Shown: piece after piece, positions 4,666-54,970 of the stretch
Layout: every line of letters begins with the position of its first letter
How positions within the stretch are numbered: position 1 is the stretch's first letter
DNA from: Lama guanicoe
Lineage: Eukaryota
DNA length: 64,000 bases
Direction: 5' to 3'
Assembly: GCA_013239625.1 (NCBI GenBank)
Contig: MU053810.1
Coordinates: 4,310,071 to 4,374,070, forward strand
Notes under the pieces: model-generated
The model's input: only the letters and a program-made list of their open reading frames with translations
Database searches by the model: none
Told to the model about the DNA's origin: nothing
Translations under genes and position numbers: made by a program

Positions 4666-6195
4666 TAAGTTCTTCCATTTTTATTTTTGTAAGAAAACCA
4701 AAAACAACAAAGTCACCACCAAGCACAGGACAACTCGCCAGCAAGGTCTTGGTCTCCCTCCCTCCTTCCCGTCCCAGGTGCTGTCAGCAGTGTCAGGGAG
4801 GTACTGATGTTAGCTTTTCCCAAAGGGAATATTACAAACAAGGGCTTGGAAGAGGGAGGGAAGCCTCAAGTTCTTCATCAGTGAGACGTTGCTTAAAACT
4901 GATTTGCTTTAAATAACTGGTATGTTTGAAATGCCGGAAAGGAAGACCATGCTATCAGAATCATAACCCTCTTTCTACATGTATCCCTGCAAGTGACACG
5001 TTGGCTTGGTGGAGGGCGGGGTCAGAATTGTTTTAAGGAATCAGAACAGTTTCATGAGCTTGCTCAGCACTCCCAGAACAAAAACTAAGATAAAGATAAA
5101 TACATGCTGTTTGTTAGGCGTATTCTATGGAGGGTCAGGGGCTGCAGGTCTAGAGTCATTGTTAGTTTATTTAGAGCCAGTGAGAAGGCTAGGCCCCAGC
5201 CTTGGACACCGGAGTCCTAAAGAAAAAGCGGAGAGAGTCCCATAACCCTGATCACCTTCTGCTGAAAGAGGGGGATGGAGAGGAGGTCTTGGCTGCTGGC
5301 CTCTCCCCAGCCCACGAGCCTGCAGAGGAAGGACCCTGATTCCTTAGGGGTGTCGGGTGAGCCCCAGGAGGCTGATCAGCAGAAAAGCACCAGGCTCAGG
5401 CTTCGGGCTGGAGGGGCCACTCGCATGGGGACCCGGCTGCAGCCTTCATCCCCAAGGTGGCCTGTGGCACAGGGGGTTTAGGCATAGCCACCAGCCATCT
5501 GACTGGTGGCTGCATTGCTGTCTACTCCTCACCAGGCCTCGAAGCTGAAGAAAGAGCTCACTCCATAGGCAATCATCACTAAACACAAAAAGAAAGAGGC
5601 AGCTGCCCACTGGTTATACAGCCCGGTGCCCTTCAGGGATGTCAGTTCAAACGCAGCAGAGCACGTGATGAAGGCCATGACGTAAAGAACGGTGGCGCCC
5701 ACGTTAAAGATCATTAACACCAGCGGCCAGGGCACCATGTACAGTTTCATGTGCAGCTGAAACAGGTAGAGGATGAAGAAAACGATTGTCACTAGCCAAA
5801 GGAAGACAGCGACGAACATCACCCAGCCATAGGCTGGGTACTGGTGGTATGGGATGTCGGCAATCAGGGCCCACACCAGCAGCCCTAGCACCAACTGCAG
5901 CAGCATGAGCGCACCGAAGCTGGAGCACACGAAGCCCCAGATGGGGGCGCAGCGCGGAGATCGGGGCGCAGCGCCGAGACCGAGGCGCCGGCTCCCTCGT
6001 GGGGCTGCTGGTCCGTGTGCTCGCTTTAGCCGGGAACTCGGCCATGGCGGCTCCCCTTGCCTCCCGAGGTCGCTCTGGCCGCCGCTGCCGCAGCCGCCGC
6101 CGCTCCCACGGCGGGTGCCGGCTCCTTCGCGGCTCCTCGCGCGGGGTTCTGGCTCCCGCTGCGGATCTCGGCGCTACCGGCAGTTGGTTTTGGGT
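4666..6195 (-). pseudogene. PLLP: Processed pseudogene (retrocopy) of plasmolipin, with 5' UTR, CDS remnant (ATG 6045 to original stop 5478-5480) and 3' UTR
   Basis: Translations MAEFPAKASTRTSSP and GALMLLQLVLGLLVWALIADIPYHQYPAYGWVMFVAVFLW...GGYA* match PLLP; intronless; frameshifts near 5935-6000, 19-bp tandem duplication 5941-5978, premature TGA 5529-5531; AATAAA on the minus strand at 4680-4685. Ends are approximate. Confidence 0.95.
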
Positions 6196-6910
6196 AGCTT
6201 TCCAAACACTTCCACCTGTCACATAGGATGTCCAAGACACGTGCTGGGAACAGATTACTAAACTGTCTGTTGCTCATTTTACCAGGCTCCTACCTTCCTG
6301 GAATTAAACCTTGCAACCAAGTTGAGGGACTTGAAACTTGAACTAACACTAATTTGACCTCATTCTGTTAACCAGCAGACAGGATACCAAGACTGAAATT
6401 AGGATAGACATTTACTTGGGCTGCTTTTTCCCCTCTTCTCATCCAATTTCTCTCTCTCTCCCTCCCCCCGTCTCTAGGGAGAAATAAGTGAGATGTACTA
6501 ATATTGAATAGATAGTTATATATGTGATCGTGCATATGAAATCATCTCTCTGAATTACGGATATTTGAATAGTTTATGGGTTGGAGCTACTCTGCTTAAA
6601 GCTACTCTGACTTTTCAGCACAGGCTATGGTGTTGACATATGTTTTCATTTCTCTTGATGGATACTCTTGGTCTCAGATAAGTGCATATATAACTTTACA
6701 AGAAACTGCCAAATTGTTTCTAAAGTGATGGGACCATTTTACACTCCTACCTGTAATGTATGAGAGTTCAGTTGCTCTACATTCTTGCCAACACTTGGTA
6801 TTGGCAGGGATTTTTATTGTAGACATTCTAATGAGTATGTTCTAGTATCTCATTGTGGCTTTACCTTGCATTTCCTGATGACTAATGATGATGTGCACCT
6901 TTCATGGCTC

Positions 6911-7082
6911 ATTACCCATTTGCATGCCTTCTTTTGTCCAGTGTCTGTTCTCATCTTTTACACACGTATCACAACGCAGAGTACTAACCACTATACGATC
7001 ACGGCGAGCTACTGTGGACATATTACCCATTTGCATGCCTTCTTTTGTGCAGTGTCTGTTCTCATCTTTTACACACGTATCA
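6911..7082. repeat. 61-bp direct repeat (6911-6971 and 7022-7082, one mismatch) flanking the tRNA-His fragment
   Basis: attacccatttgcatgccttcttttgt(c/g)cagtgtctgttctcatcttttacacacgtatca occurs twice. Confidence 0.95.
6970..7019 (-). pseudogene. tRNA-His(GTG) 5'-half fragment (first 36 nt, ending at the anticodon) plus 14-nt upstream sequence
   Basis: The reverse complement of 6970-7005 is GCCGTGATCGTATAGTGGTTAGTACTCTGCGTTGTG, identical to the start of mammalian tRNA-His(GTG); it is preceded by gtccacagtagctc. No 3' half or B box, so it is not a functional tRNA gene. Confidence 0.93.
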
Positions 7083-10000
7083 GATTGTCTTCATATTACA
7101 GATTCTAAGAGCTCATTATATAAATTACATAAAAATTCTTGGCCAGATACGTGTTTTGCAAAAATTTCCTCCCAGTTTGTGATTCACATTGTAATTTTCT
7201 TAAAACTAACATTTGAGGAGCAGATATTTTAATTTTAATGAAGTCCATTTTATCGTTTTTTTATTTTTACTTTTTGATGGCTGGCATTTTCTTTTATTTT
7301 TTTCCTAAGAAACACTTGCCCACTTCAGAATTGAATTTTCTTCCTCTAGGTTTTGTTCGGAAACATAATTGATTTTTGTCTGTTCATCTTGTGTGAGAAC
7401 ACTGCTAAATTCAGTTATTAATTTTTATTAATTTTTGATACATTATTTAGGATTTTTTCCACAATCTTGTTGTATGTAAAGAGAAACAATGTAATGTTTT
7501 TAACACATTTTAGTATCAGGTTAATACAGGCTTCAGAAAATAAGTTTGGATGCATTTTCTCCTCCTCTAATTCCTGAGTTTGTGTCAGATTGATATTAAT
7601 GGAATGGAATCTGTCAGTGAAATCATCTGCGCATAAAGTTTCCTTTGTGGGTAGCTTTTTGATTATAGATTCAAATTCTTCAGTAGAATTAGAGCCATTC
7701 AGATTTTCTGTTTCCTCTTGAGGTAGTTTTTGGTAATTCTGATGTCAATAATTTATGGTTTTTTTCATGATTAAGCTTGCTAGGACTTTATCATTTTTCA
7801 TATTTTTTCAAAGACAATGTTTATTTGTTAATATTGTTTTCTTTGTGTGGATCTGTGCTTTTTATTATTTTCTGCTTTCTAGGCATTTTGGGATTATTTT
7901 GATCTTTTCATAATTATTGTTAAAGTAGACATTTAGATAACAGATTTTAAATCTTTCTCTTTTTAAAATGTAGTCATTTCTAGTTATAATTTTTCCTCTG
8001 AGCACTATGGCTATCTTTTATATATTTTAATGTGTTGTGTTTCATTATCACTTATTTTGAAAATTTTTTCTAATTTATCTTTGACTCCTTTTTCAGTCCA
8101 TGGATTATTTTAAAATATATTGTCTAATTTTCAAGCATTTGGGAATTTTAAAATATCTTAGTGTTACTGACTTCTAATTTGACTCTTTCATGATCAGAAA
8201 ATGTATTTTGTCAGTTTCCATTTCTTTTGCAATTTATTTAACTTATTTTATGGTTCAGCATATGGCTTATCTTAATGAGCAGTTCATGTGCTATTGAAAC
8301 AAATATGTATGTGTAATGCAGTTGGATAAAGTCATCTGTAGCTGTTAATTAAGTGAAGTTGGTGGATGGTGTTTTCAGATCTTTAATATGTTTACTGATT
8401 TTTTGCCTACTTGATCTATTTACTGATGAAGAAGTAATTTAAAAACCTCAGCTATAATGTCTATTTCTTTAATTCTGGCAGTTTTTGCTTCATATATTTT
8501 GCATTTCTATTGCTAGTGCATATGCATTTAGCGTTGCTAGGTCTTCCTAATGAATTGTGTTTTTTTGCCATTGTACAATATCTCCTTTTTATTCAACTAA
8601 TACCTTTGCCTTTAAGACCAATTTGCTACTTATACAGCCTCATCATCTTTCTCATCCTACTATTCACCTGGAAATCTTTTCCAATCCTTTTACTTTCAAC
8701 ACATCAGCATGTTTCTATATTTGTAAAATGAATCTTTCTAGTTTATAAACTATATTATCTAGCTGAATCACTCTTTAATATAAAGTATAATAGTCTTGGC
8801 CTTTTAATTGGATTGTTCTGTCCATTTGCATTTAATATGCTAATTGATGTTGCTATGTTCAAGATAAATTTGCTATTTTTCCCCACTTGTCCCATATATT
8901 TTTTCCCCCTCTATCTTCTTTTGGGTTCATTGAAATCTTTTACTTTTTCATGTTATTCTTCTTGTTTTTCTTTTTTTAACCTATTTCTGTTGTATTACTT
9001 TCAGTGGTTGCTCTAGGACACAATATTCATCTTTAGTTTATCAGTATTTCTTTAGTTTCACTACCGCACTGCTTTTCATCCTCTCCAGTACTAACCACTA
9101 TACGATCACGGCGAGCTACTGTGGACCTTTACACACGTATCAGATTGTCTTCATATTACAGATTCTAAGAGCTCATTATATAAATTACGTAAAAATTCTT
9201 GGCCAGATACGTGTTTTGCAAAAATTTCCTCCCTGTTTGTGATTCACATTGTAATTTTCTTAAAACTAACATTTCAGGAGCAGATATTTTAATTTTGATG
9301 AAGTCCATTTTATCGTTTTTTTATTTTTACTTTTTGATGGCTGGCATTTTCTTTTATTTTTTTCCTAAGAAACACTTGCCCACTTCAGAATTGAATTTTC
9401 TTCCTCTAGGTTTTGTTCGGAAACATAATTGATTTTTGTCTGTTCATCTTGTGTGAGAACACTGCTAAATTCAGTTATTAATTTTTATTAATTTTTGATA
9501 CATTATTTAGGATTTTTTCCACAATCTTGTTGTATGTAAAGAGAAACAATGTAATGTTTTTAACACATTTTAGTATCAGGTTAATACAGGCTTCAGAAAA
9601 TAAGTTTGGATGCATTTTCTCCTCCTCTAATTCCTGAGTTTGTGTCAGATTGATATTAATGGAATGGAATCTGTCAGTGAAATCATCTGCGCATAAAGTT
9701 TCCTTTGTGGGTAGCTTTTTGATTATAGATTCAAATTCTTCAGTAGAATTAGAGCCATTCAGATTTTCTGTTTCCTCTTGAGGTAGTTTTTGGTAATTCT
9801 GATGTCAATAATTTATGGTTTTTTTCATGATTAAGCTTGCTAGGACTTTATCATTTTTCATATTTTTTCAAAGACAATGTTTATTTGTTAATATTGTTTT
9901 CTTTGTGTGGATCTGTGCTTTTTATTATTTTCTGCTTTCTAGGCATTTTGGGATTATTTTGATCTTTTCATAATTATTGTTAAAGTAGACATTTAGATAA

Positions 10001-11146
10001 CAGATTTTAAATCTTTCTCTTTTTAAAATGTAGTCATTTCTAGTTATAATTTTTCCTCTGAGCACTATGGCTATCTTTTATATATTTTAATGTGTTGTGT
10101 TTCATTATCACTTATTTTGAAAATTTTTTCTAATTTATCTTTGACTCCTTTTTCAGTCCATGGATTATTTTAAAATATATTGTCTAATTTTCAAGCATTT
10201 GGGAATTTTAAAATATCTTAGTGTTACTGACTTCTAATTTGACTCTTTCATGATCAGAAAATGTATTTTGTCAGTTTCCATTTCTTTTGCAATTTATTTA
10301 ACTTATTTTATGGTTCAGCATATGGCTTATCTTAATGAGCAGTTCATGTGCTATTGAAACAAATATGTATGTGTAATGCAGTTGGATAAAGTCATCTGTA
10401 GCTGTTAATTAAGTGAAGTTGGTGGATGGTGTTTTCAGATCTTTAATATGTTTACTGATTTTTTGCCTACTTGATCTATTTACTGATGAAGAAGTAATTT
10501 AAAAACCTCAGCTATAATGTCTATTTCTTTAATTCTGGCAGTTTTTGCTTCATATATTTTGCATTTCTATTGCTAGTGCATATGCATTTAGCGTTGCTAG
10601 GTCTTCCTAATGAATTGTGTTTTTTTGCCATTGTACAATATCTCCTTTTTATTCAACTAATACCTTTGCCTTTAAGACCAATTTGCTACTTATACAGCCT
10701 CATCATCTTTCTCATCCTACTATTCACCTGGAAATCTTTTCCAATCCTTTTACTTTCAACACATCAGCATGTTTCTATATTTGTAAAATGAATCTTTCTA
10801 GTTTATAAACTATATTATCTAGCTGAATCACTCTTTAATATAAAGTATAATAGTCTTGGCCTTTTAATTGGGTTGTTCTGTCCATTTGCATTTAATATGC
10901 TAATTGATGTTGCTATGTTCAAGATAAATTTGCTATTTTTCCCCACTTGTCCCATATATTTTTTCCCCCTCTATCTTCTTTTGGGTTCATTGAAATCTTT
11001 TACTTTTTCGTGTTATTCTTCTTGTTTTTCTTTTTTTAACCTATTTCTGTTGTATTACTTTCAGTGGTTGCTCTAGGACACAATATTCATCTTTAGTTTA
11101 TCAGTATTTCTTTAGTTTCACTACTGCACTGCTTTTCATCCTCTCC
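7068..11146. repeat. Tandem duplication of 2,019 bp (7068-9086 and 9128-11146, offset 2,060)
   Basis: Line-by-line comparison shows only 7 substitutions; the ORF track repeats at offset 2060 (8510/10570, 8557/10617, 8813/10873). Confidence 0.97.
9087..9126 (-). pseudogene. Second, shorter tRNA-His(GTG) 5' fragment (26 nt) plus the same 14-nt upstream sequence, at the duplication junction
   Basis: agtactaaccactatacgatcacggc-gagctactgtggac is identical to 6980-7019. Confidence 0.93.
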
Positions 11147-50669: not shown

Positions 50670-51940
50670 TGAAAATATAAGGAAAGTAAGGAAAAAATAA
50701 TAAGTAAAAACTGCCTATATTTACAGATGATTTTTTCTTTTTTTAAGAAATTCTGGAGCAATCTACAAATCAACTACTACAACAAATAAATTTACCTAGG
50801 TCTCAGAATTCAAGGTCAATATACAAAAATCAGCTGTATATCCATACGGTAGAAGCAAACGATTGTAATGTGAAATTTTTAAATCAAGAAACACAAGGTA
50901 ACTAGGAATACATTTAACGAAAGTTGTGTAATACTTGTACACTGAAAACTATAAAATATTGCTGAATTTATAGATGATCTAAATGAATGGAGAGACATAC
51001 CATGCTCATGGTTTAGAAAGTCAATATTGTTAAGAATTTTTTCTCCCCAAATTTATGCACAGGTTCAGTGCAATTCTGATCAAAACCGCAATTCTTAGGG
51101 GGAGGGTGTAGCTCAATTGGTAATTAGCATGCATGAGGTCCTGGGTTCAATCCACAGTACCTCCTCCAAAAATAAATAAACCTGATTACCTCCCCCATCC
51201 CTCAGCCAAAATAAAATAATTTTAAAAAATGATGATACATAAATAAAAAATATTAAAAAATAAACCCCGCAATTCTTGAGTAGAAATTGACAAATTGATT
51301 CTAAAATTTATATGGAAAAACAAAGGCCTTAGATTAGTTTGAAACATAGTTTGGAAATAGACCCTTTTTTTTTTTATTTTTTTTTTTTTTACCAAAGCAT
51401 CAAAGCAATTCAGTAGATAAAGTCTTATCCACATATGATGTGGGGAAACTGGATACACCAAGAAAAACTGAACTTTGACATCTTCATTCTGCACAGAGAA
51501 ATTAATATTAGATGGATCAAAAAATAAAAGCTAAAACTACAAAGCATCTGGACCAACATAAGTCCATCTCTTCATGACCTTGTTTGCCAAAGATTTTCTT
51601 CAGAAATGATACCAAAAGCTCTAAATGCAAATGAAAAAATTGACAAGTTGGACTTTATCAAAATGAAAAACTTACTCTCATCAAAAGAAGACAGGCATTA
51701 AGAAGTGAAAAACTATATACCCTTTATGTAATCAACCCCACAAAATAATAGTAAAAGACAAAAATACAGTAAAAAAAAAAAGTTGGGAAAAGGCTTGAAC
51801 ACATACCTGGTCAGAGAAAGTATACAAATGACCAATAAACACATAAAGAAGTAGTCAACATCTTTGGTCGTCAAAGAAATGCTAAATAATTCCACAGTAA
51901 AGTATCATTTCACACCAACTAGAATGGCTAAATACTAAGG
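50670..51940 (+). mobile_element. Old L1 ORF2 remnant
   Basis: caaggtcaatatacaaaaatcagctgta, aatgaatggagagacataccatgctcatgg, gacaaattgattctaaaatttatatgg. Confidence 0.8.
51098..51261 (+). mobile_element. Vic-1-like SINE inserted in the old L1
   Basis: gggggagggtgtagctcaattgg...gaggtcctgggttcaatcc; TSD ccgcaattctt at 51086-51096 and 51267-51277. Confidence 0.85.
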
Positions 51941-54830: not shown

Positions 54831-54970
54831 GTGGGAGGGTACAGCTCAGTGGCAGAGTGAGTGCTTAGTGTGCATGAGGTCCTGGGTTCAATCCCCAGTA
54901 CCTACTCAAAGAATAAATAAATAAGTAAACCTAGTTACCTCCTCCCCCCCACCAAAATTAAATTAAATTT
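54831..54970 (+). mobile_element. Vic-1-like SINE
   Basis: gggagggtacagctcagtggcagag...gaggtcctgggttcaatccccagtacc; TSD aaaaagtgaatgtaa (54816-54830) / aaaaagtgagtgcaa (54971-54985). Confidence 0.85.

Follow-up and report, generated by a model that had tools for sequence, protein, structure and literature searches.

A tRNA-His half present twice at a nested 2-kb duplication in Lama guanicoe: possible target-primed capture of a pre-tRNA with template switching

Tailless retropseudogenes were reportedly first described by Schmitz et al. in 2004. In a later screen (Noll et al. 2015, PMC5322556) they are 3'-truncated copies of tRNAs, processed or unprocessed, which lack an oligo(A) tail, end at a break in a loop, share 2–18 nt of complementarity with the target and are flanked by a TSD; that screen accepted TSDs of 8–35 nt only and removed genomic duplications. 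The TSD lengths of full-length L1 peak at 14–16 bp (PMC2912911), and in NER-deficient cells L1 TSDs of 40, 47, and >100 bp are reported; as many as 10% of HeLa events had TSDs of >100 bp, and lengths in cells reach several kb (PMC5223499). For L1 in cells, three insertions with locally templated DNA have been described, as have small tandem duplications (PMC11702581), and in another report an L1 cDNA linked sister chromatids, producing a tandem duplication (PMC7058536).

The window, which is the whole stretch of 64,000 nt analysed here, contains a site at which the original prediction placed a perfect 36-nt tRNA-His(GTG) 5' half, ending at the anticodon, between unusually long direct repeats of 61 bp. 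Both parts of this description hold. The minus strand from 7005 to 6970 is identical at 36/36 positions to +1 to +36 of the intact tRNA-His(GTG) genes of this genome, and the 61-nt direct repeat R (6911–6971 and 7022–7082 in the assembly sequence) has a single mismatch (6939 C / 7050 G), a match expected by chance at about 1e-34 per position pair. The insert, T1, occupies 6972–7021 and consists of a leader and the 5' half of tRNA-His on the minus strand. It is 5'-complete and 3'-truncated, as a tailless retropseudogene of at least 30 nt should be, covering half of a 72-nt gene. The predicted absence of poly(A), the C at −1 and the TG overlap with the repeat are all present in the sequence, and the 2-nt overlap with the target at the anticodon is within the 2–18 nt of complementarity, next to a loop break, that is typical of this class. 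The standard tRNA cloverleaf places the anticodon end in a loop; an MFE fold did not recover the full cloverleaf. ARAGORN found no functional tRNA in the window (0 genes), and an Rfam scan of the window reported two other tRNA-like matches but not the tRNA-His fragment. The coordinates are collected in Table 1.

Table 1. Features of the tRNA-His insertion locus, in window coordinates
Feature	Position	Strand	Description
R copy 1	6911–6971	+	Target DNA inside an old interspersed repeat; 6970–6971 is the 2-nt tRNA priming overlap
R2 inside R copy 1	6957–6971	+	3' copy of the proposed true TSD
T1, tRNA-His(GTG) +1 to +36	6970–7005	−	Anticodon at the end, no tail; 36/36 identical to intact genes
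T1 leader, −1 to −18 of L002(−)	7006–7023	−	7022–7023 common to the repeat
Middle block, 2065 bp	7022–9086	+	R copy 2 (7022–7082) and B (7083–9086); the target site without an insertion
T2, −16 to +26 of L002(−)	9087–9128	−	42/42 identical
R2	9128–9142	+	Proposed true 15-bp TSD, 5' copy; same sequence as 6957–6971 and 7068–7082
2019-bp duplication, copy 2	9128–11146	+	Copy 1 is 7068–9086; 7 mismatches

A search for the source locus found the source gene in the animal's own genome. Among eight distinct intact tRNA-His genes, the T1 leader is best matched by the flank of L002(−), an intact 72-nt tRNA-His gene (G000:C9598:8484792-8484845), being exact to −14, different at −15 (position 7020) and equal again from −16 to −18 (17/18 nt). 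The prediction had allowed that the leader might be filler, which it is not, as an intact gene carries the same upstream flank. As to the template, for which either an unprocessed pre-tRNA or tRNA gene DNA had been offered, the first of these fares better than the second: the leader ends at −16/−18, much as the 18–21-nt leaders of eight other copies do. Three intact tRNA-His genes (L002–L004) are clustered within 2.4 kb (G000:C9598:8483198-8485539), two of them divergent, with the leader end and the trailer start in common; three more intact genes are on C9322.

A survey of the genome gave 23 tRNA-His 5' fragments, two at this locus and 21 others. The 3' end is at +36 in 19 of the others, at +37 in one and at +30 in one, counts in which shorter fragments are under-represented because both survey queries ended at +36. 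A TSD of 10–19 bp, anchored on the anticodon TG, is present in 19/21 (mode 15–16), while L010 and L022, which fell outside the TSD filter, have repeats of 7 and 12 bp; in no case (0/21) is there a TSD longer than 19 bp. Leaders of 18–21 nt resembling a gene of this genome precede eight of the 21, seven clearly and L010 in part. The anticodon end, the TG overlap and the retained leader are thus the norm for the His class here. The view that leader retention is unusual is rejected on these counts, and unprocessed tRNA sources are already stated in PMC5322556. The priming site lacks a TTTT/A motif both at this locus and throughout the His class in this genome. When 28 loci of 2–3 kb each were compared with themselves, direct repeats of at least 25 nt at at least 90% identity were seen only in the two loci of the present site, a comparison from which L047, L049, and L050 were left out and in which 3-kb loci could miss a kilobase-scale duplication.

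The leader-bearing halves (L006, L010, L016, L019, L020, L025, L026, and L027) have 5' ends at −18 to −21, and their leaders can be traced to particular tRNA-His genes or close paralogs, giving a fossil map of Pol III starts and of germline-active genes. Mature tRNA-His carries a G at −1 that is added post-transcriptionally. Among the 13 leaderless copies there is a G at −1 in seven, and in three a single base lies outside the TSD. These three are L012, L014, and L018 (G000:C2834, C55222, and C7351), in each of which a lone additional G separates the TSD from +1; this G, as expected from mature, G-1-bearing tRNA-His, would be a genomic record of the post-transcriptional G-1. Both this G and the leader stops at −18 to −21 bear, indirectly, on whether such copies were made from RNA by L1 ORF2p.

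The description of the locus in the original prediction, accurate as far as it goes, overlooks a second copy of the tRNA half (T2) and a 2019-bp tandem duplication (7068–9086 and 9128–11146, with 7 mismatches in the window self-comparison). T2 sits at the duplication junction and has the same leader and tRNA as T1. On the plus strand the order is A-R-T1-R-B-T2-R2-B-C, where R2 is the final 15 nt of R, such that repeats of 61, 2019, 40, and 15 bp are nested around two inserts and the locus exceeds the empty site by 2171 bp. The 40-bp repeat flanks the middle block, 6980–7019 being the same as 9087–9126. The target region has many genomic matches at 66–88% identity (74–88% for the R region), as would be the case for an old interspersed repeat, which we take to be L1.

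Two independent insertions were considered for T1 and T2 and ruled out, since the probability that a second independent His half falls within 2.2 kb is about 5e-5 even if the common leader is left out of account; the two therefore derive from one molecule or from one DNA copy. The leader of both matches L002(−) only, among the eight intact genes, and L002(−) is the assigned source of none of the 18 other His fragments scored.

The junctions of the two copies, taken together, have an ordinary geometry. The T1 3' junction (6971) and the T2 5' junction (9128) enclose a perfect 15-bp TSD, so that, with respect to the 8–35 nt limit of the published screen, T1 alone is flanked by 61 bp whereas the outer junctions of T1 and T2 are flanked by 15 bp. 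A random landing in the 10–19-bp range has a chance of 0.16 within 61 bp and of 0.005 within 2065 bp. With its TSD taken from the outer junctions, the locus looks like a regular insertion that has been interrupted by 2065 bp copied from the empty site. The 61-bp repeat is probably not a TSD but one edge of a local duplication of about 2 kb. A need for the widely staggered break, or the RNA-patched repair, that had been suggested from T1 alone is thus not supported: the priming junction is typical of the class, and T2 supplies the 15-bp TSD.

If the 61 bp were nonetheless a true TSD of T1, made by a distant second nick, T2 would have to come from a later tandem duplication of 6980–9086 accompanied by a 47-bp deletion. 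T1 by itself does have 2-nt overlaps at both ends and does extend to −18, and long L1 TSDs have been recovered in cells (PMC5223499), but such a history seems quite improbable given that none of the 21 other His copies exceeds 19 bp and that the deletion would have to start exactly where the earlier junction lay and still leave the 15 bp typical of the class (chance at most 0.16).

A further candidate is endonuclease-independent patching of a break by pre-tRNA cDNA or tRNA-gene DNA, along the lines of class 2 TSIPs or RNA-templated repair. The locus resembles class 2 TSIPs (PMC5110952) in its short insert from a distant template, lack of poly(A) and use of microhomology; the missing TTTT/A motif and the blunt join at 9086/9087 are also in keeping with a patch. 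Class 2 TSIPs have no TSD (PMC5110952), however, whereas duplications of 15 bp and 61 bp are present here, and the 3' junction is common to a recurrent class of retrocopies, being the same as in 19 copies with normal TSDs. A DNA donor, moreover, gives no reason for the stops at −16/−18 and +36. A patch without a TSD fits poorly, and we regard this explanation as very improbable.

The reading that we favour, giving it not quite even weight, is that a pre-tRNA-His from L002(−) was captured in one TPRT event of L1 type that was resolved by template switching, the product being a tailless retropseudogene. What is observed is the set of component pieces, the gene of origin, the geometry of the 15-bp TSD and the statistics of the His class; we infer from them the RNA template, L1 as the enzyme, the single event and the following order of steps. 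A nick at 6971/6972 would prime on the anticodon loop through 2-nt pairing, and the cDNA would reach the pre-tRNA 5' end at −18. The free cDNA end would then anneal, again through 2 nt, 61 bp upstream on an intact empty target, which could be the bottom strand before its cleavage or else the sister chromatid, and be extended by 2065 nt; the middle block would have no insert because its template was still empty. Next, another incomplete copy of that RNA or cDNA (+26 to −16) would be joined to the extended end with no microhomology, and its attachment to the target, at a distance of 15 bp from where the first nick was made, would provide the normal second junction. We propose no function for the locus, which would be a mutational scar.

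Several observations are consistent with this single event. The 15 bp given by junctions 6971 and 9128 is within the class range of 10–19 bp and at its mode of 15–16, and the switch at 7021/7022 coincides with the end of the cDNA, which is where a free 3' end would be. The T2 junctions show no microhomology at +26 (9086/9087) and 1 nt shared at −16. T1 reaches −18, beyond the end of T2 at −16, and the leader of L026, which belongs to a related leader group, is likewise 18 nt long and begins with A; T1 would on these grounds resemble a full-length cDNA, for which a completed simple insertion is not an easy origin, although the reading to −18 assumes one substitution at −15 and depends on three bases, two of them common to the target. 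In its strictest form the proposal would have a single polymerase-bound pre-tRNA copied twice in one germline event, in the order RNA, 2 kb of genomic DNA, RNA, and target, the last reached at the normal 15-bp stagger, and this version we hold to be unlikely. Were it true, L1 capture of a 50-nt nuclear RNA would write a nested duplication of 2.17 kb through repeated switching between RNA and DNA templates, and small-RNA halves would be the signature of tandem duplications caused by L1 that have stayed hidden because screens based on TSDs throw them out.

The empty middle block and the 40-bp repeat that flanks it can also be accounted for in two steps, by a normal tailless insertion with a 15-bp TSD followed by later replicative repair in a heterozygote, copying 2065 bp of the empty homolog with template switches at −14 and +26. 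The eight differences (7 + 1) could then be allelic, and the three CpG transitions among the seven have the look of a natural spectrum. Against this, it would have to be a coincidence that the later break came no more than 2 nt from the earlier 5' junction, and the T1 match at −17/−18 would be chance too, at an estimated 1 in 16, which makes this sequence of events rather improbable.

The differences between the two members of the 2019-bp pair are unevenly placed. Four are in the first 170 bp, three in the last 275 bp, and none in the middle 1575 bp, for which P is about 2e-4 under uniform placement; CpG transitions make up 3/7. Such end-clustering suggests that the assembler collapsed the middle or that gene conversion took place, and a tandem arrangement of two haplotypes could also give it. 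Divergence of the pair is 0.35% overall, rising to about 1.6% should the ends be the resolved part, and one mismatch in 61 is compatible with both values. Among the 41 matches listed there is no third near-identical copy of the 2019-bp unit, nor is there a separate contig for an alternate haplotype among the 41 matches listed per search (40 of 645; 40 of 52 candidates scored).

An assembly artefact would be one in which a heterozygous insertion with an ordinary 15-bp TSD was laid out in tandem as the left part of the insertion allele, the empty haplotype, and the right part of the insertion allele. The locus splits exactly into these three pieces, the mismatches of the pair are confined to at most 275 bp from its ends, and the assembly that was searched (2.05 Gb) is in 55,231 contigs with N as a gap mark elsewhere, for example at L026. 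That explanation, however, requires two junctions that are present on neither allele, and the window has no N letters, including at both of these odd junctions. T1 and T2 would, besides, be one physical DNA, yet they differ at −15, and no one k-mer length is compatible with both the overlaps (48–50, 42, and 61 nt) and the spacing between each junction and the nearest difference (28 and 21 nt). The word share is at most 0.85 in every public run listed, as an artefact would have it; these runs (n = 20, from 8 studies) contain 0.70–0.85 of the words, which is below even the 0.88–0.94 expected from an empty or simple-insertion allele, and shares below the prediction for any allele neither support nor refute the junctions. 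On balance we consider an artefact doubtful.

The favoured reading, of a single TPRT event with template switching, can be set against the described systems point by point. In common with tailless retropseudogenes there is a truncated tRNA with a leader, no oligo(A), a loop break, 2-nt complementarity and, if taken from the outer junctions of T1 and T2, a TSD, and the half, the leader and the end point are all ordinary, so that this part of the finding is explained. The RNA is here twice, however (−18 to +36 and −16 to +26), and local DNA of 2065 bp separates the two copies. Given that the screen in PMC5322556 limited TSD length and removed duplications, a case of this kind would probably have been missed or dropped by it. 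With the events in PMC11702581 and PMC7058536 the locus has in common a TPRT end joined to nearby copied DNA and a duplication junction that is spanned by a cDNA, for which the sister chromatid may have been used; those events were in somatic or cultured cells with L1 or mRNA as cargo, whereas here there is a 50-nt pre-tRNA half with two nested junctions in an assembly. The repeats of 61 and 2019 bp are both within the range of tens to thousands of bp for long-TSD L1 insertions in PMC5223499, in which there is one insert and one long repeat pair; this locus differs in having a pair of inserts and repeats nested in one another while still keeping a 15-bp TSD. Taken together, the reports of L1 in cells (PMC11702581, PMC5223499, and PMC7058536) make the proposed outcome plausible. 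In the literature searched, which consisted mostly of openly available main texts, no tRNA half captured twice in a nested duplication was found. The core, a tRNA half with a pre-tRNA leader, is already known, and the nested, twice-captured layout is a variant of it.

If the junctions hold in reads, the locus would preserve, as few natural sites do, the outcome of long template switching at a TPRT intermediate, which has so far been reported mainly from tumours and cultured cells, and would indicate that capturing a very small nuclear RNA can seed kilobase tandem duplications. What looks like a long TSD may be no more than the margin of some larger duplication. This is a single locus in one assembly, and no sign of function was seen there.

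About 700 bp from the tRNA insert, and in the same orientation, the minus strand of the window carries, at about 5150–6200, a copy of a MARVEL-domain gene (PF01284, E 6.9e-22) that has no introns and is frameshifted. It has an ATG at 6045 in one frame, the domain (5529–5906) in another, and a GC-rich 5' UTR; its start resembles plasmolipin, and the copy is probably a processed pseudogene. Elsewhere in the window there are tRNA-headed SINE-like copies with A-rich tails at 2155–2226 (−) and 54835–54906 (+), and a weaker one near 51098–51232. The first two, which ARAGORN did not call, score 40.5 and 38.7 bits against the Rfam tRNA model and are 87% alike.
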